Shown here: in pieces, positions 12,991 through 33,821 of the stretch | Position numbering within the stretch: position 1 is the first letter of the stretch | Layout of the letters: every line of letters starts with the position of its first letter | Source of the DNA: Dictyostelium discoideum | Taxonomy: Eukaryota | Direction of reading: 5' to 3' | Assembly: GCA_000004695.1 (NCBI GenBank) | Contig: CM000152.2 | Location: 4,352,001-4,416,000 of the forward strand | Length of the DNA: 64,000 bases | Position numbers and translations under genes: made by a program | Notes under the pieces: model-generated | Seen by the model: the letters and a program-made list of their open reading frames with translations, nothing else | What the model was told of the DNA's origin: nothing | Databases searched by the model: none

Positions 12991-13366
12991 TATTAATAAT
13001 AAAAAAAAAAAAAAACATAAAATAAAATAAAAATGGTAATAATAAAAAAATGATATAATTTATAAAGTAATATTGTGTTTGGTAGTGCTGAACATTTATA
13101 TTTTTATTATAATAATATTATTAGACTAATATTATTATGTGCATGATTAAATATTGTTTTTATTAATTTTATTATTATTTTTATTATTATTTATAGTTGA
13201 TTAAAATGTATCATAATATATGAATTAATGATTAAAGATAATTTAAATTTTTATTTTGAGTATAATTTTATTATTTAATTATAAAGATAAAGAGGGATTT
13301 TTATTTTTTTTTATTTTTATTTTTTTTTTTTTTAGAGTTATTATTCTTTGTTCTATATTATTATTA

Positions 13367-13371
<5 letters not shown>

Positions 13372-13455
<84 letters not shown>

Positions 13456-13458
13456 TTT
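13372..13458. repeat. (ATT)n microsatellite of about 29 units
   Basis: A long perfect attattatt... run produces the spurious poly-Leu ORF at 13256..13507. It is flanked by homopolymer T runs and ambiguous bases. Confidence 0.9.
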
Positions 13459-13478
13459 TTTTTATGATTTGATAAGTT

Positions 13479-13512
<34 letters not shown>

Positions 13513-13533
13513 ATAATTTAGATCTTTTTTTTT

Positions 13534-13683
13534 NCCNTTTTTGNGTTTAGAATACGTGCAGAATACATATATATTGATGTACAATAAAATTTTGTATTCC
13601 TTGCCAAAAATAGTATTGCGGGTGTTTTAAAATTATGGTTATATGTTTAATGAGTGAAAATAAAGTGTAAAAACTGTTATCTN
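13534..13683. other. Region with ambiguous bases (N), a low-quality or unresolved assembly stretch
   Basis: Literal n characters occur at 13534, 13537, 13544 and 13683-13685, embedded in homopolymer T tracts. Confidence 0.9.
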
Positions 13684-16637
13684 NNTTTTTTTTTTTTTTT
13701 TTTTTTTTTTTTATATCTTGTTTTTACGATTTACAAAAAATAAAATAATAAAAAATAATAAATAATAATAAAAAATAATAAAAATAAATAAAAAATAAAT
13801 AAAAAAATAAATAAAAAAATAAATAAAAAAATCAATAAAAAAATACATCTTTTATTACTTTTTAGGATTAAAAATATAATTGGATATTGTTGTATGAAGA
13901 AGAAAAGAAAAAAAAAAAAAAAAAAAATTTATTTCTGGTTGAAAGCGTAAAACCATCAAAAAAAAAAAAATAAAAAAATAAAAAAATAAAAAAAAATAAA
14001 ATAAAATTTTATAAAAAAAATCATCTTATTTTTGTTCAACGTGAAATTTTCTTTGGAATAATCTTGCTTAAGTTTGCATATAAAAAATCAAAAAAAGTAA
14101 AATTTTTTTTTTTATTTAAATTTAAAAATTATTCCATTAAAAAAACACGAAAATTAAAAATCAAAATTTAGTAACGTTGTACAAGCAGGGTGTGAAATTC
14201 ACAAAAAAATAAATAAAAAATAAAATTTTAAAAAAAGATATTAATTTTATTTTATATAAACACACACAAACCCTTTTGATTTTTAAAAATTATAATTTTT
14301 TTTTTTTATTTTTATTTTTCTATTTTTACTTTAAATTATGAATATTCTTTCGACAATCTTGGTCAAGGTGACTCATTTTTAAAATTTTTTTTATTTTATT
14401 TTTTTATTTTATTTTTTTTTTTTTTTTTAAGGTGATATTAAAATTAAAACAAAACATTGAAAGAGGAATTATTATAATTAAATTATGATTGAGTTTAGGT
14501 TAATTTAAATAGAATTTGATATATTCAGTTAAAACACTTACCAATTGATGATTTACCACTCTATCTTGGCTACCACAATAAATATATATATTTTTAGTTT
14601 TTATTTTTTAATTTTTTAATTTTTTTTTTTTATTGGTGGTTGGGAATTAATTTTAGTTATGATCAGATTTAATTTGAACTATAATTTATTAATTTAGTAA
14701 TATAAAAACCTATTTTTTTTTAATTTATAATTTTTAGATTTTCTCAATTTAATTTAGTACTGTTTTGTTTTAAATTTAAAGGAAAATAAATTAATTTTTA
14801 TATATTTTTTTTTTTTTTTTTTTCAACAAATAGGTCAATATTTTTAATTTATTTATTTTTTTCTTTTTTTTTGTTTTATTTGATTAAATTTTTAACAATC
14901 TTGATTAGGGTAAACAGTTATTTTTATTTTTATATTTTTATTTAACATTATTATTGTTATTATTTTATTTTTTTTTATTTTTTTATTTTTTTATTTTATC
15001 TTTTTTTTTTTTTTATATTACTCATTTTTCAAAATTACAAATGACCAAAATATAATTGTTTTGTTACAATAAAAAAAATAATATTGTCATATAAAATTGT
15101 TATCATTGTGAGTTAAATATTTAAAAATTAAAAAAAAAAAAAAATAAACTTTTAAGAATAATGCCATTTCTAAAAATGATCAAAATAATTTAAAAAAAAA
15201 ATAAATTAAAATAAATAGTTTGAATATATAAAAAAAAAAAAAATAACAAACACACGGATGTGAGGTTTAAAATATGTGTTATATAGGGTATTCTTTTAAT
15301 TCAATTATTATATGTATATAAATAGTTGTGTGAGTGTGTTATTTTAGTGGTTTTCTTCAAACACAATATGAAATTTTAAAAATTTAGCACAACCACACCA
15401 CCACACAACACTACACCATTAAAAATATTATGAATATATGTGTACTAGTTTTTTTATATTTTTTTTATTTTTATTTTATTTTTAAATATATTGTTTAATA
15501 TATATAAAATTTTTTTTTTTAAAATAATATTAAAAAAAAAAAAAAAAAAAAAAATAATAATAAGTGTTTTTAATATATTGTAATGTAAAATAATTATTAT
15601 AATTTATAAAAGGTATGTATGTGTAAAATATAAGTAATTTAGGACACAAATAACAAGTTCAAATAAAACCAAATTATTTTTTATTTTTTATATTTTTTTT
15701 TTTTTTAAAAAAATAAAAAAAAAAACACAAAAAAATTATTTATTTGTATTTATTTTAAAATTAATTTTTTTATTATAAAAAATATTTGTATTTTTATTTT
15801 AAAATTAATTTTTTAAATAATTATTAAATAAAATAAAATAAAAAAAACAAATTATTAATCATAATTTGAACAAAATAATTGGTATAAAAAATAGTATTAA
15901 TTTAGGTAAAAGAATAAAGATAATAAATTGTTCTTTTTTTGGGGTTTTTTTTTATAGTACAAATAATTTATTCCATCATTCTCGTATCATTTACACACCA
16001 TACAATACCATATTATACATAAAATATACAATAAACACAAATACACACACATCTATATATATCATTGTGAAAATAATTTCCATAGACATAAACCATACAA
16101 ATAATTAATTATTTAAAATTACAGATTTATTTGTATTTTTAAAATTTTTTTTTTTTAATAGTTTTTTTACTCTAGTTTTTTATTTTTTTATTTTTTAAAT
16201 TTTAATTTTATTTGTTTTTGTTTTATTTTTATTTTTATTTTTAATTTAATTATTTTTATAAAAATTATTGTGTTTTTTTCTGTTTGATTCATTTCAATAA
16301 ATAATTTATATTTTACTAATTTGAAAAAATCTATTTTTATGGAAAAAATATAAAAAATAAAGAGAAAAAAAAAAAAAAAAAAAAAAAAAAGGAATAAATA
16401 TAGTTTAAATTGTACAATACTTTCAATTTTTTTTTTTCTTTGTTAATCGATTTCAAATACAAAAAAAAAAAAAAAAAAAAAATTTATTTATTTATTTTTT
16501 ATGTATAGCTCCTGATAATAATAATAATTATAATAATAATAATTTAAATTTAAATTTAAAACAAGAAAATAGTATATTAAATATAAAACATATAAAACAA
16601 ATTAAACGAAATAAATTAATTATATATACAATTAAAA

Positions 16638-16858: not shown

Positions 16859-17552
16859 AAAAAAAGTTGTTAGATTAATATGTTTGATTGCAGGTGGTGT
16901 TCAAGTATTTATGGGTGGATATATTTTTTACTCAATTAGTTTTACAAAAGATCATTCAGTTCAAAACTATTTATCATTATCAGTTGTTGGTTTTTATGCA
17001 TGTTTAACTGGTTTATTAATTCTTTTTGCAGAAACAAGAACAAGATGGACTAGAAGAGCTGTAAAAGTATTTGTTTTCCTTTGTAATGGTTTATCAAGAG
17101 GTATAATTTATATTCTGTAAGTATTTAAATTATTTTTTAACTTTTATTTTTATTTTTATTTTTTTCCACTACTAATAAAATTAAATTTCTTATGGATTTT
17201 ATTATTTTATTTTTATTTTTTTTGGAAATAAAGAATTGGAGCTATTGATCAATCACCAATACCATTTAAATTTTTAAATATTATAACTTCAATGCATATT
17301 GGTTTAGTTTGTATAGCAGGTGGTGTTGTATCAATTATTGAATTTTTAATTACATATAGAAGAAATAGAGCAAGATTGAATCAAGCAATTGCAAATCATC
17401 AACAACAAGCTAAAGGTACTGAATTGTATGACCTATTTGAAAGAGAAGATTTCAATAATCCTGAAGATGCAGCTGCTTATGATTTGGAAAAGGGTAAAGA
17501 TCCAAATTATATTCATCAAGATTTAGAAATGCAACCAGTTCAAGAAGCCTAA
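16638..17552 (+). CDS. Small four-TM integral membrane protein of unknown family, three exons
   Basis: join(16638..16743, 16894..17116, 17234..17552). Exon 1 reads MMHALGDLFKPEEKEIKMDRDKCSGACVAIWTWKT, with a GTAGGT donor at 16744. Exon 2 (acceptor tgattgcag) reads GGVQVFMGGYIFYSISF...VVGFYACLTGLLILFAETRTRW...FLCNGLSRGIIYIL, with a GTAAGT donor at 17117 that overlaps the apparent stop. Exon 3 reads IGAIDQSPIPF...HIGLVCIAGGVVSIIEFLITYRRNRARLN... and ends in an acidic C-tail. Family assignment (possibly a Golgi/COPI-vesicle tetraspan protein) is speculative. Confidence 0.65.
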
Positions 17553-17662
17553 AAAATAATAATAATAAAAATAATAAAAACAATAATAATAATAATAAAA
17601 CAACAAAAAAAAAAAAAAAAAAATAATAATGTTTTTAAAATAGAAAAGGAAAAAAAAAAAAG

Positions 17663-17710
<48 letters not shown>

Positions 17711-17916
17711 GAAAAAAAAAAAAACCATAATTTTAAATTTTTTAAATAAAAAAATAAAAATAACAATAAAAAATAACAATTAAAAAAAAAATTAAATATA
17801 TTCACATTATTTTGAATAAAAAACAAACAAAATTGTGATCAAATTTGGGAAGTGAATTTTTTTTTTTTTTTTCATTTTTATTTTTTTTATTTTTTTCATT
17901 TTTATTTTTTTTTTTT

Positions 17917-17949
<33 letters not shown>

Positions 17950-18111
17950 CAGATTGCTCGTTTTTTTGTGTATATATATTTATTTAATCATTTTTTTTTT
18001 GTGTCCACATACAAACCTAAAAAAGACAATTACATTAAAACAATAAAAACAATAAAACCTATAAAAATCAAAAACTCATCAATACACAACACGCATATAT
18101 AAAAAAAAAGA

Positions 18112-18426
18112 ATGAATTTCAACAAAAATTCAATTGTATTAGGTACTTTATTACTTAAAGGACCATTGTCAAGACAAAACCTTTGGAGTTATGTTTCAAG
18201 ATTCAATTTTTACTCTGGTTTAACAAACTTAAAAATGCACTTGGATAGAATGGTTAAAGAAAGAAGAATCACCAGAAAAGTATCACCATTATCAAAAACG
18301 AGAGGTCAAGAGATTTTTGAATTTGCAATTATTAAAGAAAATGAAAGAAACAATATTCCAGAAGATACTTTAGATAAAATAAAAACAGAAATCAACGAAT
18401 TTGATAAATTATTTGAAAAAAAATAA
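18112..18426 (+). CDS. Hypothetical 104-aa basic protein, single exon
   Basis: A clean ATG-initiated ORF encodes MNFNKNSIVLGTLLLKGPLSRQNLWSYVSRFNFYSGLTNLKMHLDRMVKERRITRKV.... Codon usage is coding-like and it lacks the homopolymer runs seen in flanking DNA. No family was recognised. It could be a mitochondrial-targeted small protein. Confidence 0.45.
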   Translation: MNFNKNSIVLGTLLLKGPLSRQNLWSYVSRFNFYSGLTNLKMHLDRMVKERRITRKVSPLSKTRGQEIFEFAIIKENERNNIPEDTLDKIKTEINEFDKLFEKK

Positions 18427-18771
18427 AATAAAATAAATAATAATAATTTAAATAAATAATGAAGCAACACAACAAAAACAAAAATAACAATATAATATAA
18501 TGCAATTAATTACCTATGAATGGAAGTGTATCCATACACTCTTTTTTTTTTTCATCAATAAACATGTACATAAAATAGGTAAAAAAAAAAAAAATAAAAA
18601 AATAAAAAAAAATAAAAAATTATAATTAAAAAAAAAAAAAAAAAAAAAAAAGATATTTGTTTGGGTGATTTAAATATATTGAAAATAACTTTTGAAATGA
18701 TCTACATATGTATTGGGGATATTTCTCTATTTTATGTAAAATTTTTATTTTTATTTTTATTATTATTTTTC

Positions 18772-19007
18772 TTAGGAAAATAATCTCTTTATGGCAAGTG
18801 CCACAAGAAGGGTAAATAAAATTACAATCATTCTATCAATTTGAATGGTGGATGGGTTTAAAATTGTTCTTTGTTGTTGAATTATTGGTTGTTGTTGTAG
18901 TTGTGGTGGTTGTTGTGGGTTTTGTAAAGTAGTTGTTGGTTTTTGTGTGGCGGAGGGTGTTTGAGAATTATTTTGCGCTATATTGTCATTTTTATTGTTA
19001 TTATTGC

Positions 19008-19038
<31 letters not shown>

Positions 19039-19656
19039 ACTATTTTTATTATTTTCAGTGATAACACCAATTGTTGGTGTATTTAATTGTATTGATGCTC
19101 CACTGCCACCAGAAGCACCAATTGAAATATTTTGTGTTGGTAAATTATCAAGTGATTTCATTACCATATCTTCTATTGGTTCATTATCTTCATTATCTTG
19201 TTCATTGTTGTTATTGACTATTTCTTCCTCTTCATAATAAGTTTCTGTATTTTGTTTAGTTTCTTCCTCTTGTAGTTTTTCATTGTAATCTTGATCTTCA
19301 TTTTTAATATCACCACTATCATTATCATTATTATTATTGTTATCATTATTATTATTATTATTAGTAGTAGTAGTAGTATTTGTTGAGGTATTAGTAATAG
19401 CTGTAACTGTGGTTTCTGTTGCTGCTGTTGTTGTTGTAGTTGTTGTTGTAGTGGTGGTTGTATTATTATTATTATTATTACTATTAACTGGTTGACCCAA
19501 AGCAAAACGATTATGTGAACCACATCTTGTACATTTCCAATCTAATGATTTTAATGCTAATTCCTTTCTATCTTTTGTTGGTAAATCAATAGCACCAATT
19601 GCACCTTTTCCTTCTGTTGGCATAAATCCAATTAATGCAACTAAAACTGTTCTAAC

Positions 19657-19692
<36 letters not shown>

Positions 19693-20312
19693 AAAATTAG
19701 ATTTATTAGCATTTTTTTTTTTTTTATTTTAATTATTTGTTTTATAATATTTATATATACATACTACTCCAAGATGGTTGCCAATGTTCTGGATGGTGTG
19801 CTGATACAGTTAAACAAATCTTTACATTGGTTTCAAATCTACCATTTGGCTAAATATATTAATCATATATATGGTTAGTGTTATTTTTAATAGGTGTTGT
19901 CGGTTGTTGTTATTTTTATTGTTAAATACATACTGTCAATAATACAATATTTGGTGGTTTGAATGGATATTCAGATGGTAAAATAATTCTACCATGGTAA
20001 ATACCACCATTAAAATCTGAATCTTGTGGTCCTCTTATTGTAAAATGCCACTCAAATATATTGTCCTACATATAAGATATTATATATATATAATCATTAG
20101 TTTAATATTATAATTTAAATTGTTTATAATTAAAAAAAAAAAAAATAATAAATATATATATATATATTTGTGTATTTATATATATATATATATATATATA
20201 CACATACCTCTAAAGGAAATGCTTTGTAATCTGGATTTGTATCATTTCTAAGTTCTTGTATCTCCCTTAGGATTCTTTTTACTGCTGGGTTATTTGGGTT
20301 ACATGAATCCAT
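18772..20312 (-). CDS. Ubiquitin-conjugating enzyme E2, UBC6/UBE2J type, tail-anchored, four exons
   Basis: complement(join(18772..19655, 19765..19849, 19934..20065, 20208..20312)). The N-terminus reads MDSCNPNNPAVKRILREIQELRNDTNPDYKAFPLE | DNIFEWHFTIRGPQDSDFNGGIYHGRIILPSEYPFKPPNIVLLT | PNGRFETNVKICLTVSAHHPEHWQPSWS | IRTVLVALIGFMPTEGKGAIG.... This gives the UBC fold with the catalytic Cys in the HPEHWQPSW context typical of Ubc6. The gene continues with a long N/T/Q-rich low-complexity linker and a C-terminal hydrophobic anchor (MIVILFTLLVALAIKRLFS). Intron 1 contains a (TA)n run. Confidence 0.8.
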
Positions 20313-20442
20313 TGAACGTACGTAGTTTATTTTCTCTATTATATAAATAATGCAATACAAATATTTTAATTTAATTTAAAAAAAAAAAAAATAAAAAAAA
20401 AAAAAAATAAAAAAAAAATAAAAAAAAAAATTAATTTTTTTT

Positions 20443-20473
<31 letters not shown>

Positions 20474-20874
20474 CAAGAAATAAAGGGAAAACAAAATTTA
20501 AAATATCTGAGACATATGTTTTTTTTCTTTTTTTTTTTATTTTTCATTTTTTTTATTTTTGGAAATAATTTGACTTTTTTTATAAACACAATTAAAATAA
20601 GTAATTTTCAATAAAAATAAAAAAAATAAAAAAAAATTTATTTACAAAGCCTCTTTTATAGTAATATATTTTATTTATAATTAATAATTTTTTGATTTTT
20701 TTATTTGTTTCCATAATTTACAAATATTTTAAAATTATTATTTACAAATTTGTTAAGAGAGAAAAATATATATATTTTTGTTTTGAAAAGTGGTAATATT
20801 ATTTTTTTTTTATTTTATTTTATTTTATTTTTACTTTTTTTTATTTTCCGGAAAAAAAAAATGGAAAAAAATAA

Positions 20875-21751
20875 TTAAATTAAAAAATTAGTAAATTTTG
20901 AAGAATATTGAAAAAGAAATGAATCTCTATCAGTTATTGAATCAAAATTATTACAACGAAGATCTAATGATTTAGTGACGCGATTATTAATACAAGCATT
21001 GATTATTAAATGAAGTGAAGAAGTATTTAAAAAGTTTTTTGCAAAATTTATAGTATGAAGATATTTTGAAGTTGAGATATAGTAAATTATGATATCCATA
21101 TCATCATTTTCAATCTCATTATTTGAAAAATTTATAATTGTAATTTTATTTGATTTTACAATTGATTCTAAAAGTTTTGAAAGTTTATAACTGTTCAATT
21201 TTGATTTCCTATGAATGTACTCTTTCAAACCATCAGAATTCTTTGATTCAAAGAAATCACAAAGTGAATCTATTGAAATTTTGGAATTTATTGCATTGCA
21301 TGATAGATTTAAAACTCGGATATGTTGATTCACAGTTAGTATTTGAATGATTGTGTTCACTCGTTCTGGTGATAATAAAGAATTTGAGAATTCAATTCTA
21401 AGTAATCTCAAAGTTGAGCATTTCATTAAATACGGTACTAAATAGCAAAATCCCAATGGATCCAATCCGAATCTTAAATAAATTGCTTGACATCTATTAA
21501 TTGATTGATAATGATTACGCGGTGTTAACCAACGACCAATGATCCTACAATAATTCAAATCACTATCCCTTTCATATAAAAACTTATAAGAATAATATAA
21601 ATGTCTTATACTTTTTATTGATAATTTATTCCATAATCTACAAACCATTGAAATTTGAAAAAAACTATTACTTGGAAATACAATATCACATGCAAATCCA
21701 ATTATTTTAATTATTAAATATTCCGGTAAAATTTTATTAAATGATTTCTTT

Positions 21752-21783
<32 letters not shown>

Positions 21784-22176
21784 TACATTTTTTATTGTAG
21801 TTGATGGTGTTGATATTGGTAAAGAAATTGATGAAGATGATGATGATAATGAAGAAATTGATTGTATAGAATTTGATCTTGATAAACTATTATTATTATT
21901 ATTATTATTATTTTGTATTTGTGACGATGATGATTTTTTATTTTTAAATTTTTTTATTTTTTTTAATGGAGATTTTAGGTTTTTCTTTTTTGAAACTTTA
22001 CAATTTACCGAATTTGGTGATGGAATTAGATTATTATTTTTATCTAATTTTATTAAATTATTTAAATAAATATTTGATGATAATGATTTTTGTTGTTTTG
22101 GTGTTAATTCAAAAATTCCACCTGATGATATCATTTGATTTGTTTTTAATTGTGATGATGATGATGAGTTTCCCAT
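20875..22176 (-). CDS. N-myristoylatable F-box-like / leucine-rich-repeat protein, single exon
   Basis: The 433-aa ORF starts at an ATG and begins MGNSSSS (Gly2 myristoylation consensus). A poly-N/S linker follows. The motif ILPEYLIIKIIGFACDIVFP...CRLWNKL is F-box-like. Repeated LxxLxLxxN units follow (LNLSCNAINSKI, INFSNNEIENDD, LDLRCNNFDSI), which resemble RNI-type LRRs. Confidence 0.6.
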
Positions 22177-22904
22177 TTTTTTTATTATTATTATTTTTAT
22201 TATTATTATTTTTATTATTATTATTATTATTATTTAGGGTTAAATTTTTTTCAATCTGTTTTTTTTTGATGGTTAATTTTTTTTAATCTGTTTTGATTTT
22301 TTTTTAATCTGTTTTGATTTTTTATTTTTTATTTTTATTTTTTTTTTTTATTTTTACTTTTTTTTTTTTTTTTCAATCTTTTTTCAGAATCTGAGACAAA
22401 ATATCTTTTTTTTTTTTGATTTTTTTTTTTTTTTGATTTTTTATTTTTTTTTTTAATATTATGGTTTTTAAAAGGGTTTTAAAATTATTTTAAACCAACC
22501 ACTGAAAAAAATTAATTGGAATAGAAATAGAAATATATTAATATAGTACAAATAATATAATGTTTTTAAATTAATGAATGGGTAATGAGAAATGAATTCT
22601 GATTTGTTTTTTTTTTTTTTTTTTCTATCAATTTTAATTTTAATTTTTATTTATTTTTTTTTGTTTTTTTTTTTTTTATTTTTTTTTATCAATAAAAAAA
22701 AAAAAAAAAAATGGCCAAACCACTGAGATTCAATCAGCAAACCATTTGATTGGTCAATTTTACAACTCTCAAAAAAAATCTCCTCGCAAAAGTCTTTTTG
22801 GCAACTCGTCAGATAGTTCCATGAAATTAGAAAAATCACATTGATTGGCTTTTCCAAAATGCGATAAATTTTTTGTAAAATTGAAAAAAGAAAAAAAAAA
22901 AATA

Positions 22905-22954
<50 letters not shown>

Positions 22955-24037
22955 AAAATAAAAATATACAGTTTAACAAATCAGAATCAATTTTTGTGTG
23001 AGTGTGTGTTTGATCGGATTAATATATAATTTTTTAATTTATTTTATTTTATTTTATTTTTTTTTGTTTTTTATTTTTATTTTTATTTTTTTATTTTTTT
23101 TATTTTTTTTATTATTTTTTTTTTTTTTAAATTAAATTAAATTAAAAAAATGATAATAATAAAATTATTGTTTAAATTTAATATGAAAAATATCAACATG
23201 TTGATATGATATGTTATAGTGTATCAAAAATAGTAATTTAGATTAATCTATAAAAATTAATAATATCCATATTTATATATTTTTGTATATAATAAAATTT
23301 ATTTAATTTATTTATATGTACTGTTCAAAAAATTTTTTAATTTTTTTATTTTTTATTTTTTTTTTTAAAATTTTTTTTTTATTTTTTTTTTAAAATTTTT
23401 TTTTTTTTTTATTATTTTTTTTTTTTTATTTTTTTATTTTTTTATTTTTTATTTTTATTTTTTTTTTTTAAGGGCAATACAAACACGATAAATAAATTAA
23501 ATAAACCAACCCCCAAAATTAAAAATCAAATACTCACTCAATAATCCATATTTAATTATTTATATACCCAAATAAAGAAAATTTTGTTTATTTATATATC
23601 ATCATATATATATTTATATTTAAACATTTTAATTATTTATAAAATTATATAAAAAATAAAATAAAAAAAAAATAAATTATAATAGTAATAATATTTTTTA
23701 TTATTATTATTTTTTTTTTTTTAGTGTATTATATATATAAATATATTAGTTAAAATAGAAATAGGATTATATTTATACCAATAACTATAGTTTTTCATTA
23801 ATTTATATATTCTATCCCGATTTTGTATTTATACATGTATTTCCTTATATACACTTAAAATTCAGACATTATTATTTATTATATATAAAAAAAAATTAAA
23901 AAAAAAAAAAAAATTAAAAATAAATAAAATTTAAAAAAATAAAAAAAAAAAAAATAAAAAAAATTTGTATATATATTAGAAAAAAAAAAAAAAAATAAAA
24001 AAAAACAAAAACACAAATAAAAAAATAATAAAAGAAA

Positions 24038-24706
24038 ATGAAGAGGTTCTTTTCGAATCTCTTTAAGAGAAAACAAGACCAGAATAGTCATATTAAACAA
24101 ATAAATGGGCCAACAACATCAACTCCTACAACAACTCCTACAACTCCTACAACTCCTACAACAACTCAAACACCAACGCCACAAAATAATAATACAAATA
24201 ATAATACAAATAATAACAACAATACAAATAGTAATAATAGTAACCAACAAAAGAAAGAACAAGCACAAGCATCACCATCAACTAATCAAACACAAACACC
24301 ATCTAATAATACAATATCAACATCTCCAACTGTTACAACACAACCAAGTTTCACACCAGGTGTTATAAGTACATCAAAACTTACAACATCACCACCAGAA
24401 AGTCCAAGACCACCAACTTCAACAACTAATACTACACAACCATCAACCACTACAACCACAGCTACTAATAGTACCAATACAAACACAGCATCAGCACCAA
24501 CTAAAACAGCATCTCCAAGCTCACCAAGTGCAACAGCTTCACCAAATAATAATAGTAATAATACAACTACTACTGCTGCAACTACTACAACTACTACAAC
24601 TACTACAACCACTACAAATGCAAATCAAACAGCAAGTGTTAATCACACTAGCAGTGACCAATCATTAAATGCTCAAAATGTAACACAAACAAATAATAAC
24701 AACAAC

Positions 24707-24737
<31 letters not shown>

Positions 24738-26565
24738 CAAATAATACAAAACCAATTAATCCAAATGATTATATTCCATTGGATTTTGTGGATTCTACAC
24801 CAAAAGTTGATAACAATCAACCAAAAAGAAAAGCAAGTGGACCACCAGAAATTTTACCAGAAGAAATTGATAGAACTGATTTCCTTGGTCAAGGTTCATT
24901 TGGTTCTGTATACAAAGGAAAATGTCGTGGTCAAGAAGTAGCAGTTAAAATTCCAAGAAAACAAAAACTTAGTTTATATGAATTAACTAGTTTTAGACAT
25001 GAAGTTAAAATTATGAGGTAAGGGTTTATTATATATAAAAAAAAAAAAAAAAAAAAAGACCATTTTTTTATTAATTCTTTTTTTTATTTTTATTTTATTT
25101 TTAAAAATCAATTAGTAAAATCTTCCATCCAAATGTAGTATTGTTTTTAGGTGCTTGTACACAATCAGGTAAAATGCAAATTGTTACAGAACTTTGTCAA
25201 ACAGATTTAGAAAAGTTATTACATAATGATCGTACCAAAAAGGAGTTTAGTTTATTTAGAAGAATGCAAATGGCTAAAGATGCAGCATTAGGTATGAATT
25301 GGTTACATGGTATTACTAGAATTGTTCATAACGATTTAAAAACAGCAAATCTCTTGGTAGATATTAACTTGCGTGTTAAAGTAACTGATTTTGGTTTCAG
25401 TCAAATTAAAGAAGGTGAAGAATTTCAAGATAAAGCAGCAAAAGGAACTCGTAAGTTTTAAAAAAAATTTTTTTTTTTTTTAATAATAATCATTTTTTGA
25501 TATTAACTATAATTTTTTTATTTTTTTATTTTAAAAATAAAAAGCATTATGGATGGCACCAGAAGTTATGATGGGTAATCCATATAATGAAAAAGCAGAT
25601 GTCTATAGTTTTGGTATTATTTTATGGGAAATTTTAACAAAGGAAGCACCATATTCACATCATAAAGATTACGATATTTTCTTTAATGCAATTTGTAACG
25701 AGAAAGAGAGACCACCAATTCCAGCAGATACACTTCCAAGTTTACGTCATTTAATTCAAACATGTTGGGATCATAATCCACAAAATAGACCATCATTTAG
25801 CGAAATCTTATTCAGATTGAATGAGATTTTAATCGATTGTGCAATCGATTTCGACGATGGAAGAAAGTATTGGAAAGAACATTTCTTAGTACCAAAACAA
25901 GAATTACAAGAGGAGGTTGAATGGTCAGACTTTGAAAAAACTTTGAAAGCCACTCACAAACAATTAAATCTCGATTATGCTCCACTCAAAGAGTTACTCG
26001 TTCAACAATCTCATCAAACTGTTCAAAAAACTAAACAAGTTGTCACTATGGAAAGATTTGATAAAGTTAGTAAATGGTTTGGTTCTTTCTTTGAACCAAA
26101 TACTGGTATTGAAACTATTGATAATGTATGTTTTCTTTTTTTTATTTTTTTTTTTTTTTTATATAAATATTTTATTAATATTGGTTTCTTTTTTTTTTTT
26201 TTTTTTTAAAAAAATAATAAAAATAGATTAATAAATTATCAGCAAAAATTTGGTTCCATGGTGATATTGTAAGAGAACAAGCAACATCTAGATTATCAAA
26301 AGCAGCTGAAGGAGCATTTTTAATTAGATTATCATCAACCGAACCAAAGACATGTCCTTTCACATTGTCAATGAAAAATAATCAACACCGTAGAATTCAA
26401 TTGATCGATGAAAATAATTTTACAGGTTTTAAGATTCAAGGAAAGACAGCAGTTTACAATAGTTTAATAGAATTGGTCGAAAAATGTAATGACTATCCAT
26501 TATTAGTACCTTGTCCAAAATTCACACAAGAAACTTTTAATCCTTATGATCCTTATACAAATTAA
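24038..26565 (+). CDS. Protein kinase with a C-terminal SH2 domain (Dictyostelium shk family, TKL-like), four exons, about 744 aa
   Basis: join(24038..25017, 25116..25450, 25545..26125, 26227..26565). Exon 1 is a T/P/N-rich N-terminus followed by the kinase start GQGSFGSVYKGKCRGQEVAVK..EVKIM. Its junction R|S restores SKIFHPNVVLFLGAC. Exon 2 carries HNDLKTANLL...VTDFGFS. Exon 3 carries ..GTPLWMAPEV...DVYSFGIILWEILT.... Exon 4 is an SH2 domain (WFHGDI...AFLIRLSS...). All junctions are GTAAGx/GTATGT...AG and in phase. I could not determine which shk paralogue this is. Confidence 0.8.
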
Positions 26566-26870
26566 AATAATAATAATAAAAATAATATTTATAAAAAATA
26601 ACAACAATAACAATAATAATAAAATAATAATAATAATAATAATCAACATTAAAAAAAAAATTGTAATACCACATTTTTATTTTAATCAATCAAAAAAATA
26701 TTTGTTTTTTTTTGAATCCACTGACCAACAATAATAAAAAAAAAAAAAAAAAAAAAAGAAAAAATTTTTAAAAAAGAAATAAAAAAAATAAAAAACAAAT
26801 AAAAATAATAAAAAAAATTAATATATAATTAATAATATTATAAAAGAAAATTATGTGCATTTGATTTTTC

Positions 26871-26907
<37 letters not shown>

Positions 26908-27228
26908 TAGTAAAAGATAATTTGTCCAGCTGGCTTTTTTTGAATTTTCGATAATTACTGTCTTTTGACCAAGGCTTCCAAAAATATATTTTCTCATTTT
27001 TTTGAGATATCCATATAATTTTTTTAATATAAAATGATGGAGAAAAAAAAATTAAAATATTGACTGAATAAAATAAATAAAATAAATAAATATATAAAAT
27101 AAAATAAAATAGAATAAATATATATAAAATAAACATAAAATAAAAATTAAAATAAAATAAAATAAAATAATAAAATAAAATAAATTAATAAATAAAATAA
27201 ATTAATAAATAAAATAAAATAAATAAAA

Positions 27229-27569
27229 ATGGGATTTTCAGAATTAAAAACTAAAACTACATTTAAATTTGACTTTTTTGATAATTTCTTTGATAAAGAA
27301 AAAAGAGAATTTTTAAGAGAATGGACAAAGAAAATTCAAGAGGCATTTAAAATTTTCATTCAAAAATTAAAACTAACTTCTAAATGGGTAGATGAAAATA
27401 TTGTGAAACCAATTTTACTAAAACTTACAGAGTTATGGCAATGTTCATATGCAATGATTCAAACATCAACAGTTTCCAGACATGAATATTTTGAATTACA
27501 ACAAGAATTCAATAAAGAGGCTGAAAACTTATTAAAAAGATTTGAAGAAAAATTAGAAGAAAAGCAAAG

Positions 27570-27615
<46 letters not shown>

Positions 27616-27825
27616 AAACAAAAACATAACAAACAACAAAAACAACAACCACAACCTCAACAACAACAACCACAACAACAAGAACAACAAGAACTACAAG
27701 AAATGCAACCACAATATTCAAATCATTACAAAGATGAATCCAGACCGGAAGATTATTATCAACAAGATCAAGAACAATATTATAAACAAGAACCTCAACA
27801 ACAATCAAATAAAAAACTTGACTAA
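27229..27825 (+). CDS. Hypothetical coiled-coil/polyQ protein, single exon, 198 aa
   Basis: The ATG ORF encodes MGFSELKTKTTFKFDFFDNFFDKEKREFLREWTKKIQEAFKIF...EKLEEKQR(Q)n.... A (CAA)n run encodes about 20 Q. No family was recognised. An (AAATAAAAT)n-like tandem repeat at 27060-27225 precedes it. Confidence 0.5.
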
Positions 27826-28249
27826 AAAAATTATTTTAAAAAAAAAAAAAGAATAAAATTCCTAAAATGTTTAAATTTAAATTTTAACTTCAAGAATTAT
27901 TTTTTTAAAAAAATGAAAATAAAATCTAAGGTTGGCCAGATCTAAAAATTTCATAACTATTTATGAAAAGTAATTTTATGCTAACCTGGTGGCCTGTTTT
28001 TTTTTTATTTTATTTTTTATTTTCTGTATTGCCCCTTATTAAAAAGTTAAGGACTACATTTTTTAAAAAACTTTTTGGAGAGCTGGATTTTTTTTTATTT
28101 TTTTTTTTAAGTGTTGATTTTATAATTTTATTTGAAAAATAATCAAAAAAAAAATCTTTTTTTTTAATTTTTAACAAACCAAATAGATTTCTTTTTTTTT
28201 TTCCTTTTTTTTTTTTTTTCCTTTTTTTTTTTTTTTCTATTCTCTTTTA

Positions 28250-28301
<52 letters not shown>

Positions 28302-28439
28302 TTTTCATTGATATTCAATATATAAAATATTCATTGAGTAAAAATAATTTGTTATTTGTTAATAATGTTTCAAAACAAAATATCTTTGGTAAATAATATT
28401 TTTTATCTGAAATATAATATATAAAATATTTTAATTATC

Positions 28440-30990
28440 TCTAAAAAAAAAAAAAAAAAAAAAAAAAATGTTTATAGGTCGTGATGGATCAAAAGGACAT
28501 GATGAAATGGTATTAATGGTAAAAAAGGTGTCGATGGTAAATATACAATACAAATATTTGATTATGAGGGTGTTAAATTTAATAGTTCACCATATGATTT
28601 AATGGTGGAAGAGATTGGATAAATTGATAGAATAGGTTATAACGTAATTGAACCAGATTCAGATGTAACTTTAATGGTAAAGCATAAAAATGTGGGAGGA
28701 ATGCCAACACCATCATACCAAAATATTATGACATACGTCGATGATAATAAATGGGTATTCTGTGATCCAGTTAATAGAGTTGCATTTGATAAGTCAATTT
28801 TACAGGGTGCAGCTTCAAGAAATAAAAGAAATGAATTTAAAATCACAGATTTTAAACAAAATCCAAAATCATTACCAAGAGATCCATTTATGGTTAACGC
28901 AACAATGGACCATCAATGTTTAGTTGACCGTATCAATCAAAGCTTCAAGACAATTTCAGATAAGAAATCAAATTTTATTATTGAGTATCCAATTCAAACT
29001 TCATTAATTAAAGGTTTAAATAGTATTATATTAGGTGATGAATCACCATTTGTATTTAGAATGGGTTATATTCACATGTCGAAATGATTGGACCATCGGA
29101 ATTAAAATTCTTTTCAGGTACAATTTCATTTATAAACCCAAATATAAAACCATATACAAGAATTTTATTAGAATCAACCATATATTTAGGCCATGTTAAT
29201 AATATGATGTCTCCATTACCAATTCAATCAAGACCATTTGAAATTCAATTATCAGAGTGTTATTTACCAAAATCTATATTTCAATGTGATCTATTACTGG
29301 TTGTAAATAATCAAAGTGATTATAATGAAATTAAAAGTTGGAGAAAATTAGCAAAAAGTTTAAAGTTAAAACTAAATATTTGGAATACTAGTCTTTATAG
29401 AGCTTTTAATTTATCTCATGTTAAAATGGATGGAAAATCATTATTGGAAGATTTTCGTGGTAAAACTATATTTTTTTATATAATAGTTTTTAAAAGATGA
29501 ACTATTAACTCCACACGCTAATTTGATTAGACCTGATGAATTTTTTAATGCAGCCTACAATCATGGAATAAAGGTTTTAATCATTGGTAAAAGTTATTCA
29601 ATTGAAAGGGAAATTTCACCAATAAATACATTAGAGAAATCAACTACAGAGGCTTAATATCTAGATGATGATCATTTCTTTAAAACAATGAAATATCAAA
29701 TTCCAAATGGTTTAGGCACTGGTATTTCATTACCACCAATATTTGCAAACACTTTAAATGGTGATTTGGCAATTAATGCAATTGTAAATGGAAAAGAAAA
29801 TAATTGGATTGTAATTTTCAATGGGTATTATTTATTATCAATTTATAAAGAATCAATTTCATTATATCCACGTAAATCAATGGATTTAAATACAAACTTT
29901 GTACTTAGGAAAATTGATGAAAAAATCGATAGTGTTTCATTCCAATTATCAATTCCTCATTTAAACTTTGTTATTAACTTTTCAAAGTTGTTGGTAAAAA
30001 ACCAATTAAAATTTTAAATTTAAAGAGATTTTCATTGACAAGAGGTAATCAATTTGGTAATGAAAAATCAAGTCATGAACAGTGTTTTCAATTAGTTACA
30101 CCAGAAGTAACATGGTTTTTTAAATCTCAAGATCATTTTGAATGGGTTAGTAGATTATCACCTGAATATCAAACTTATTCTCAACCATCATCTTTGATTA
30201 AAGATCAAGTAATATTAGGTAAAGTTGATTCAAGAGGTGTTCATTTAAATGATGAATCTCCAATTATTGAAACTAGAACCATTCCAACCATCCAAGTAGT
30301 AGGTAGATATATTTTCACTAAACCAACCATTGATGACTTAGATAAGAAGTAGAAAAACAAGAAGAACGAGAAGTAGTAGATCAAGAAGATCAAGAAAAGC
30401 AAGAAGAAGAACAAGAAGAAGAAGAACGAGAAGTAGAAGAAAACCAAGTAGAAAAAGAAGAAGAAGAACAAGAAGAAGAAGAAACAATTCTTGAATCTCC
30501 AGAACCAATTGTTGATCATGAAAATCATTTGAATGGTTAGATCCTTTACCATTACCAATTCAATTGCAACAACAACAACAAGTTTATCAACCTCAAAGAA
30601 TTCAATTCAATTAAAGGAAACAAAAGATTTCGAAGATTCTTTACAATCAGAAAAACAAGAAGATTAATCATCATTATACCAATTTCGATTACAATTAGAT
30701 TCACCAAAAAGTTTAAAACAATTACTTGAAGACGAACCTGAAAACCAAAAAGAGGATAGTTTTTCAGAGGGTATCAATCAACAGCAATCAAATGACCATT
30801 TTCGATTAGATCAACAATTAATTAAAAATGAACAAAAAGAAAACCAAGATACCTTCTATGATCAACACTCCAATTAAATCAACAACCAACTCTAGAAGAA
30901 TTAAACCAATTGGATGAATCATTAAAACAAGAAGAAACAATCCAATTTGAGAAATCAATGGAACAATCCAAATAAAAGAAAATAAATAAA
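28440..30990 (+). pseudogene. Decayed protein-coding gene: about 2.5 kb of coding-like sequence broken by frameshifts and stops
   Basis: Composition is coding-like and not intron-like AT-rich. The longest stop-free segments are short and sit in different frames on the same strand (28674..29087, 29084..29500, 29688..30017, 30035..30352, plus acidic E/K/Q-rich segments at 30360-30540 and 30700-30990). No GT..AG introns with AT-rich interiors separate them. A short Gly-X-Y-like run (GRDGSKGHD|NGINGKKGVDGKYTIQIFDYEG) is split by a 1-nt frameshift near 28520. Confidence 0.55.
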
Positions 30991-31384
30991 ACTAAAATTA
31001 ATCCTAAAAACCATTTATTTAATAATCCATTTCCTTATTTTTTATTTTTTTATTTTTTATTTATACATTAAACACTCCAAAATTAATGGTACAAGTAAAT
31101 AGAATAGTAAGACAAAAAAAAAAAAATAAAGAAATAAAAAAAGTATTTTTTTTTTTTTTTTTTTAATAAAGTAATAATATATTGTTTGTTAATAGTAAAA
31201 AAAGTATATTATTATTAATTTATGTTTTTTTTTTTTTTTTTAGTTTTAGTGTAGTTGAAAAAGGTTATTTGTTGCAATTTGGTTTGGTTTGTTGTGTTTG
31301 TTTGTTTTAATATATAAAAAAGTTACTTGTTTGATTTTTTGTTTGTTTGATTTTTTTTTTTTTTTTTTTTTCTTTAAAATTTTA

Positions 31385-32595
<1,211 letters not shown>

Positions 32596-33821
32596 TTATT
32601 GTATTAAACAATAAAAGAATAAAATAAAATATAAAAAAAAAAAAAAAAAAAAAGTTAGTAAATATTTTCACTAAAACTGGTGAAAATAAAAAAATATCAG
32701 CGTAATTTAAATGTTATTGGTGAAAGAGGTGATTAAATATGTATTATATTGTTTTTATTATTGTTATTATTTATTTTTTTATTTTTATTTTTTATATTTT
32801 TATTTTTTTATTTTTATTTTTTATATTTTTATTTTTTCGATTTATATATATATTTTTGATTTTAATTTGTTTATTGATTTATTCGTTTTATTATTTTATT
32901 ATCACACTAATATTGTTTTTATAAAACTATTGTTTACCTGTATAGTGGATTTGTGTTGTTGTGAAAAATAAATAAAAATTATATTAAAAAAAAAAAAAAA
33001 ATTCAATTTTTTTTTTTTTTTTTTTTTTTTTGAATTTTTTTTTTTATTTTTTTTATTTTTTTTTTTTGAAATGAAATTTTTTAAAACCTGGGTTCTGGTG
33101 TAATTTATAACTTTGGGAGAAAAAAAGAAAAAAAAATAAAAAAAATAAAAACAAAAGAAAAAAAACAAAAAAATGCAAAATAAGCAAAAAAAACAATAAA
33201 AAAAAAAAAATAAAAAAATTAAACAAATAAAATATCAAATTCTAAAAAAAATAAATGTCTACTTTTTTTTTTTTTTTTTTTTTTGTGTGGGTTTTTTTTT
33301 TTGGTTTTTTTTATTTTTTTTTTTTTTTATAAATTAATTATTAGAATAGAATTCAATTCTGTGCAAAAATAGTTTTAATAAATAAATAAATAAATAAATA
33401 AAATTTTCTAATATTTATAAAAAATATAGTTTTTTTTTTTAATATGATTTTGATAAAATAAAATAAATTTTTATTTTTTTTTATTTTTTTATATTTTATT
33501 TTTTTCTTTTTTTTTCATCGATTTCTTTTCTAACATTAATTAAAATGTCAACGTGTTAACACACGAGATGTGTGGTGATATTAAAAAATTTTTTTTTTGA
33601 TTTTTTTTTTTTTTTTTTTCTTTTGTTTTTATTTTGATTTATTTTTTTTTTTTTTAAAAATCTTTTTTTTTTAAAAATTAATTCCAAATTTCCAAAACAG
33701 GACCAAATATTTTTATTTTGCCTGGATAAGTAAATAAAACAAATGAATTGTTGAGGAAAAATCTCAATTTTAATTTTTTTATTTTTTTTTTTTATTTTTT
33801 AATGTTTTATTTTTATTTTTT

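Follow-up and report, generated by a model that had tools for sequence, protein, structure and literature searches.

A probable non-processed pseudogene of a DUF7932- and PH-domain gene upstream of rab14 in Dictyostelium discoideum

In a stretch of 64,000 nucleotides (nt) of the Dictyostelium discoideum genome (assembly GCA_000004695.1, contig CM000152.2, positions 4,352,001 to 4,416,000 of the forward strand), hereafter termed the window and numbered from its first nucleotide, a tract that resembles an exon but is not open in any one frame lies between a gene encoding a polyglutamine (polyQ) protein and rab14. This raises the question of whether the tract is a spliced gene, an intact gene obscured by sequencing errors, a dead retro-copy or the remains of a gene that decayed in place. 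The evidence favors the last of these: window positions 28477-30975 on the plus strand are best explained as a non-processed pseudogene, i.e., the decayed positional orthologue of a gene encoding a protein with a DUF7932 and a PH domain, and we place the probability of this reading at roughly 93%.

A first-pass annotation, based on the sequence and a list of its open reading frames (ORFs), had described the tract as exon-like in base composition and codon structure, with no frame open for more than about 140 codons. Both statements are borne out. The G+C content is 0.23-0.33 over positions 28450-31000 as compared to 0.10-0.19 in the flanking intergenic DNA, while a codon log-odds score, trained on long ORFs from the same 64-kb window, is clearly positive for only a single frame at any point, the favored frame changing in the order 1>0>2>0>2>1>(0)>2>1, with codon usage typical of Dictyostelium. 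Because of this G+C contrast and the positive score along a single frame path, the tract is real coding-type sequence and not a series of chance ORFs. Three-frame translation shows that the longest open frame between 28440 and 31000 comprises 154 codons and that the best frame switches at least eight times across the relic. The fragments named previously (28674-29087, 29084-29500, 29688-30017, 30035-30352 and others) are all present in the ORF list, where they are confined to the plus strand and occupy differing frames.

With the longest fragment (28623-29084) as a query, phmmer was run exhaustively against 1.84 billion cluster representatives and returned 64 matches, the best of which was D. 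purpureum DICPUDRAFT_97676 (61% identity, E 3e-52), a protein of 1522 amino acids (aa) that is labelled 'PH domain-containing protein' (XP_003287331.1, F0ZIV0; here P0001). The next matches represent roughly one long protein (1270-1770 aa) per species from Polysphondylium violaceum, Tieghemostelium lacteum, Synstelium, Soliformovum, Planoprotostelium and Stygamoeba, with Tetrahymena among the more distant matches. A further search with the D. purpureum protein identified full-length relatives in D. firmibasis (1675 aa) and D. citrinum (1726 aa), as well as a 1262-aa protein in 'Dictyostelium cf. discoideum'. The family, whose genes encode ~1400-1900 aa, is conserved across dictyostelids and other Amoebozoa, and its intact members carry DUF7932 (PF25560) at approximately residues 280-410 and a PH domain at approximately residues 860-960, as defined by Pfam. 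The domain order of these proteins (D. purpureum DICPUDRAFT_97676, D. firmibasis RB653_010307, D. citrinum ACTFIU_008740, P. violaceum CYY_004230 and T. lacteum DLAC_05177), namely the end of a Gly-rich region, DUF7932, a middle domain and PH, is collinear with that of the relic, which shares 55-56% identity with the amoebozoan proteins over ~600 alignable residues and has kept the residues that are invariant in the DUF7932 region of the family.

The same comparisons reveal how incomplete the relic is. A Pfam search with its conceptual translation produced one borderline match, to DUF7932 (E 7.7e-6; 26.8 bits against a cut-off of 27), in a domain that is present and interrupted by a TAA codon at 28620, and no match to the PH domain; the PH domain of P0001 spans residues 867-960, and the alignment of the relic resumes only at residue 904. 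When eight homologues were compared to the window by tblastn, four collinear blocks were obtained, and 59-69 aa at the junction at 29058 were absent relative to all eight. A frameshift-aware protein-to-DNA alignment covered residues 248-1024 of P0001 at 56% identity; two stop codons in frame, three shifts of frame and two gaps (66 and 97 aa) interrupt it. No counterpart of P0001 residues 1-247 and 1025-1522 was found in the window, the N-terminal 230-247 aa of the homologues gave no tblastn match anywhere in it, and no second copy (paralogue) was detected within its 64 kb. The relic is thus without the complete PH domain and conserved C-terminal domain, joined in one ORF, that characterize functional members of the family.

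Holland et al. 2025 (PMC12745789) consider that the isolates M4B and S6B, labelled 'Dictyostelium cf. discoideum', may be cryptic sister species of D. discoideum. A cf. discoideum locus, designated L005, is syntenic with the window: the flanks align at 81-87% nt identity, and the order of the genes for 401-, 433- and 744-aa proteins, the polyQ gene and rab14 is common to both. Directly upstream of rab14, this locus contains a family member, here termed copy 2 (GCA_054859235.1, JBTAPI010000015.1, L005 17392-23583), whose ATG is at 17392 and whose last exon is open for 1704 codons within an annotated protein of 1923 aa. The relic occupies the same position, with the polyQ gene upstream and rab14 downstream, and exhibits 82-86% aa identity to the cf. 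discoideum copies. Its conserved blocks are 89-91% identical to copy 2 at the nt level and its C-terminal tail 77%, while the 3' end of the last intron and a C-terminal tail motif are common to the two. Copy 2 is intact, retaining the exons upstream of its open last exon, and is tandemly duplicated, whereas the relic, disrupted by stops and frameshifts, has lost ~60% of the sequence; with a length of ~2.5 kb, it represents ~40% of a gene of roughly 6.2 kb. The search for an intact relative that the first-pass annotation had proposed has therefore yielded an intact syntenic orthologue against which the lesions could be mapped, in agreement with its pseudogene call.

Lesions were identified by block-by-block nt alignment of the relic to copy 2, supplemented with blastn for the large junctions (Table 1). 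They comprise four large deletions, a minimum of five small indels that shift the frame and two or more (probably three) nonsense substitutions, and the frame changes that they predict are exactly those of the frame path obtained from three-frame translation and the codon score. Two apparent frameshifts proved to be deletions of 208 and 238 nt, which had escaped the first reading, as had the loss of ~1.3 kb at the 5' end and ~2.07 kb in the 3' half. A split run of Gly-X-Y type, which had been noted at that stage, is real (GRDGSKGHD / NGINGKKGVDG at 28503-28508), but the split is due to a 4-nt deletion relative to the orthologue and not to a 1-nt shift. The ATG at 28468 is located in intron-derived sequence ('aaatgtttatag') and is fortuitous rather than the ancestral start, the exon beginning at 28477. 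All four large deletion junctions display microhomology of 2-4 nt (AG, AAA, AGAA and an A-run); the 5' junction is A-rich on both sides, with poly(A) on its left and a short AAA match on its right, while for the ~2.07-kb deletion blastn pairs L005 20808 with window 30340 and L005 22881 with window 30351.

Table 1. Features of the DUF7932-PH relic in the window, with lesions defined relative to copy 2 of cf. discoideum.
Feature	Position in window	Strand	Description
Remnant of gene upstream region	28274..28467	+	Ends in poly(A) 28440-28467; blastn window 28274-28468 = L005 17035-17190, upstream of copy 2 ATG
~1.3-kb 5' deletion	28467/28468	+	From poly(A) upstream of ATG to last-intron 3' end; removes start codon and exons 1-3 (Gly-rich N-terminal ~240 aa)
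Last-intron 3' end (atgtttatag)	28468..28476	+	Aligns to 'aaatgttaatag' just before last exon of copy 2 (L005 18478) and copy 1
Block 1, end of Gly-rich region and DUF7932	28477..29057	+	88.9% nt identity to copy 2
-4 nt	28505	+	Frame 1>0
Stop, TAT>TAA	28620-28622	+	Substitution, Block 1
-3 nt	28820	+	In frame, Block 1
Block 2, conserved middle domain	29058..29983	+	91.4% nt identity to copy 2
-208 nt	29058	+	Frame 0>2; ~66 aa lost; AG junction microhomology
-1 nt each	29470, 29486	+	Frame 2>1>0
Stop, TAT>TAA	29655-29657	+	Substitution, Block 2
Block 3, C-terminal part of PH and linker	29984..30340	+	90.8% nt identity to copy 2
-238 nt	29984	+	Frame 0>2; N-terminal part of PH lost; AAA junction microhomology
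-9 nt, -3 nt	30163, 30171	+	In frame, Block 3
~2.07-kb deletion junction	30341..30360	+	Conserved C-terminal domain (P0001 1025-~1440) lost; AGAA microhomology; breakpoint +/- ~20 nt
Stop, TAG	30350-30352	+	Inside ~2.07-kb deletion junction
E/Q-rich low-complexity remnant (GAA/CAA repeats)	30361..30619	+	~70% alignment to (GAA CAA)n tract of copy 2
At least 1 further frameshift	30500-30620	+	Frame 1>0/2 near 30520-30600, in E/Q-rich remnant; from frame path
C-terminal tail remnant	30620..30975	+	77% nt identity to L005 23140-23583; motif EELNQLDESLKQEE common to copy 2 C-terminus
Stop, TAA	30665	+	C-terminal tail
-1 nt	30867	+	Frame 2>1, C-terminal tail
Terminal TAA	30973-30975	+	End of relic

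On this reading, an ancestral DUF7932-PH gene was located between the polyQ gene and rab14, and in the D. discoideum (NC4/AX) lineage the four microhomology-flanked deletions (~1.3 kb including the ATG, 208 nt, 238 nt and ~2.07 kb) destroyed it, the small frameshifting indels (five or more) and nonsense substitutions (two or more) adding further damage. Judging from the junction microhomology, the deletions probably arose via replication slippage or microhomology-mediated end joining, and decay has proceeded mainly by deletion. Since the relic is without an initiator codon, the Gly-rich N-terminal region, half of the PH domain and the C-terminal domain, it would encode no functional protein, and the locus is probably either not transcribed or transcribed only spuriously.

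The cf. discoideum locus itself contains, at L005 10001-24366, a tandem segmental duplication of a unit consisting of the polyQ-gene tail, the DUF7932-PH gene and a rab-like gene. The first gene copy (copy 1, 10001-14366, protein P0071) has kept an open frame, with an internal in-frame loss that removes the PH region; with respect to the last exon of this copy, residue 221 of P0071 maps to L005 11159. Between the two copies lie a 127-nt fragment of the polyQ-gene 3' end (14653-14779) and a gene for a 222-aa Ras-like protein (15025-15693, minus strand).

The possibility that homopolymer-length errors have broken an intact ORF deserves consideration as three of the small shifts (28505, 29470 and 29486) are in or beside short A or T runs. 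A second D. discoideum assembly, GCA_054883475.1, contains an exact match to the polyQ protein of the window and, from its near-identity to the window, is inferred to be the Nanopore and Illumina assembly of AX2-214 (PMC12745789). A comparison of the two sequences over 20.6 kb showed 78 differing positions, all of which, except for six mismatches, are length differences in homopolymers or low-complexity sequence, consistent with two assemblies of closely related laboratory strains. Across window positions 28446-32632, in contrast, they are 100% identical, so that the relic is the same base for base while homopolymer lengths vary elsewhere. Corrections at homopolymers, moreover, do not restore one ORF: two of the stops arose by substitution (TAT>TAA), and four of the lesions are deletions that remove between 208 nt and ~2 kb each. 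The genes on either side are intact, as had been argued in the first-pass annotation. Because an independent long-read assembly is identical across the relic, the lesions are not attributed to sequencing error, an explanation whose likelihood is negligible.

The age of the lesions was approached through the rates of synonymous (dS) and nonsynonymous (dN) divergence and their ratio (omega). Over the three conserved blocks, the relic and copy 2 differ with a dS of 0.246 and a dN of 0.068 (omega 0.28), while for neighbouring genes of the same two genomes dS is 0.14-0.19 and omega 0.16-0.35, and for copy 1 against copy 2 of cf. discoideum dS is 0.09 and omega 0.46. In the C-terminal tail of the relic and copy 2, the corresponding values are a dS of 0.25, a dN of 0.275 and an omega of 1.1. 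With D. purpureum, D. firmibasis and D. citrinum as outgroups, 17 lineage-specific aa changes were assigned to the relic and nine to copy 2, a difference that is not significant. Judging from the preserved codon usage and the low dN/dS, purifying selection acted on the gene during the greater part of the period after its divergence from the cryptic sister species. These data suggest that inactivation was fairly recent in evolutionary terms; from the counts of 17 and nine, a crude estimate would place the neutral period at roughly 0-40% of the branch.

Several points weigh against the assignment of this locus as a pseudogene. The automated annotation of GCA_054883475.1 places two protein-coding genes on it, encoding 332 aa (28468-29657, with a weak DUF7932 match) and 316 aa (29688-30877). 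Individual fragments, e.g., the 137-aa ORF at 28674-29087, may be transcribed or translated. Both of the D. discoideum assemblies compared here probably descend from isolate NC4, so that the lesions may not be fixed in the species. Finally, an omega of 0.28 is far from 1 and, taken alone, is compatible with sequence that is still constrained; that interpretation is untenable because of the stops, the frameshifts and the missing domains.

The first of these points implies one or two functional spliced genes with micro-introns. A gene caller did produce both models, and GT..AG pairs that restore ORFs of exactly those lengths do exist, one of them, at 29460-29496, being AT-rich. All sets of GT..AG introns that give ORFs of exactly 332 and 316 aa were therefore enumerated. 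Every such solution requires three to six introns of 20-101 nt, and these, apart from the stretch 29457/29460-29496 (GC 0.11-0.17) and a handful of very short introns, have an exon-like G+C content of ~0.2-0.44. By contrast, rab14, only 400 nt away, has four genuine introns that are 108-203 nt in length, with a G+C content of 0.10-0.19 and the donors GTAAGT/GTATGT. Furthermore, the required introns would remove codons that are conserved in the homologues, and the proteins encoded by the spliced models would still have only half a PH domain and neither the N-terminal region nor the C-terminal domain. The 37-nt stretch at 29460-29496 was considered as a frame-restoring micro-intron and rejected, as it aligns to sequence coding for KTI..FLKDELL in the orthologue with two 1-nt deletions. 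The earlier claim that no AT-rich, intron-like DNA separates the fragments thus needs to be corrected, given that this stretch has a GC content of 0.11, even if the stretch derives from coding sequence and not from an intron. In agreement with the first-pass annotation, splicing cannot plausibly restore the ORF, and functional spliced genes at this locus are very improbable. The 332- and 316-aa models look like gene-caller artefacts, to be replaced in the newer assembly by a single pseudogene feature.

Processed pseudogenes are similar to the relic in that they consist of coding-like sequence without an open frame, and the first-pass annotation had offered a dead retro-copy, inserted between the polyQ gene and rab14, as one of two possible origins. 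The lack of internal introns is uninformative in this regard, as what has been retained derives from a single large exon of the parent gene, and a poly(A) tract (28440-28467) does adjoin the relic. This tract, however, is situated 5' and not 3' of the relic, and it matches a poly(A) tract upstream of the intact cf. discoideum gene. The 3' end of the last intron has been kept at 28468-28476, and the sister species has an intact gene between the same neighbours. The relic therefore lacks the three hallmarks of retroposition considered here, namely a new location, freedom from intron sequence and a 3' poly(A) tract; instead, it is syntenic with its parent and retains intron sequence. Since it is syntenic with an intact gene and keeps the end of the last intron, a retro-copied origin is rejected, its probability being vanishingly small.

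What remains is decay in place. The primate GULOP is the classical example of a unitary, i.e., non-processed and non-duplicated, pseudogene. As in GULOP and others of this type, a gene that is intact in relatives has been disabled at its original position by deletions, frameshifts and stops, and the locus combines homology to a functional gene with lesions that are real, that cannot be spliced out and that occur at the position of an intact orthologue. It differs from the GULOP type in that microhomology-flanked deletions, and not point mutations, account for most of the decay and in that a functional relative may exist elsewhere in the D. discoideum genome. The term unitary pseudogene, also from the first-pass annotation, consequently applies in a positional sense, denoting a decayed orthologue rather than a decayed duplicate. 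The relic is an ordinary kind of pseudogene and conceptually nothing new, and it is mildly notable only for the possible loss of a family from a model species, the deletion-dominated decay and the mis-annotation in a recent assembly. It does offer a clean, time-bracketed case of gene death in a very AT-rich genome, in which microhomology-flanked deletions and A/T-run indels dominate and substitutions are scarce.

Whether D. discoideum retains another member of the family depends on the relationship of the rab14-locus gene to those of other species. Over the columns covered by the relic, it is 86% identical to copy 2, as compared to 54-55% for the proteins of D. purpureum, D. firmibasis and D. 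citrinum, which are 72-86% identical among themselves. Neighbour-joining placed the relic together with both cf. discoideum copies in a clade with 100% support, sister to a second 100% clade (D. purpureum,(D. citrinum, D. firmibasis)), a grouping that conflicts with the species tree of PMC12745789. Two explanations remain for the rab14-locus gene, which may be an old paralogue ('B-type') or a relocated, fast-evolving orthologue. If it is a paralogue, an intact 'A-type' member, resembling the genes of D. citrinum, D. firmibasis and D. purpureum, could survive elsewhere in D. discoideum and buffer the loss. The mismatch between gene and species tree fits such an old duplication; the D. citrinum and D. 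firmibasis genes are at a different locus, adjoining an Acyl_transf_3 gene; and where these two species have a derived residue, the ancestral state is more often preserved in the B lineage (11 vs 6). On the other hand, the search with the D. purpureum protein, which recovered relatives from D. firmibasis, D. citrinum and cf. discoideum, recovered none from D. discoideum, a weak negative given that this search misses true relatives, including copy 2. No A-type protein was recovered from cf. discoideum either, so that no species has so far yielded both an A and a B type, a pattern which also fits a relocated, fast-evolving orthologue. A surviving A-type gene is accordingly a possibility that we regard as rather doubtful.

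Of the genes at those other loci, the A-type gene is next to a gene for a 234-aa protein and the Acyl_transf_3 gene in D. citrinum (L004 10001-15613) and D. firmibasis (L006 10001-15590), while in D. purpureum (L001 10001-15094) it is found beside genes for F-actin capping protein alpha, PARP and NADAR. The window shows no synteny with the D. purpureum, D. citrinum and D. firmibasis loci beyond the gene itself.

For the pseudogene at the rab14 locus, these data leave an evenly balanced case for the more far-reaching proposition that the NC4/AX lineage of D. discoideum has lost its only copy of a DUF7932-PH gene which is kept in every dictyostelid, and in many of the other Amoebozoa, examined. 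If so, D. discoideum would be a natural knockout of a conserved gene, the intact copy persisting in a sister species with which it produces few macrocysts, if any; an absence of the family from the standard laboratory species would account for the lack of any work on it there, and the cryptic sister species, D. citrinum or D. purpureum would be the places to study the gene. In a weaker variant, a fragment such as the DUF7932-only ORF may still be expressed and have been co-opted.

The relic reconstruction gave no matches in NCBIfam, PADLOC and PDB sequence searches, P0001 gave only noise from Gly-rich linkers in the PDB, and a fold search with a DUF7932 model returned only generic beta-sandwich matches; a literature search for DUF7932 and the gene identifiers of the family found no papers. 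A word-indexed protein search with the 624-aa reconstruction (X at junctions) and the 154-aa fragment was likewise without matches, though the 61%-identical protein is in the same collection, indicating an insensitive search. This search also missed the 1923-aa copy 2, and its negatives are not evidence of absence.

As regards the DNA around the relic, the polymorphic, low-complexity intergenic sequence upstream of it contains a long pyrimidine tract, composed of T runs punctuated by C or CC, at 28150-28300. Examples of tracts that distinguish the window (17652-33264) from GCA_054883475.1 include 12 nt of T/C at 28270-28281, three A at 28443-28445 and 26 A at 22907-22931, and a cluster of A/C and A/T mismatches between the two assemblies is found at 22495-22513.

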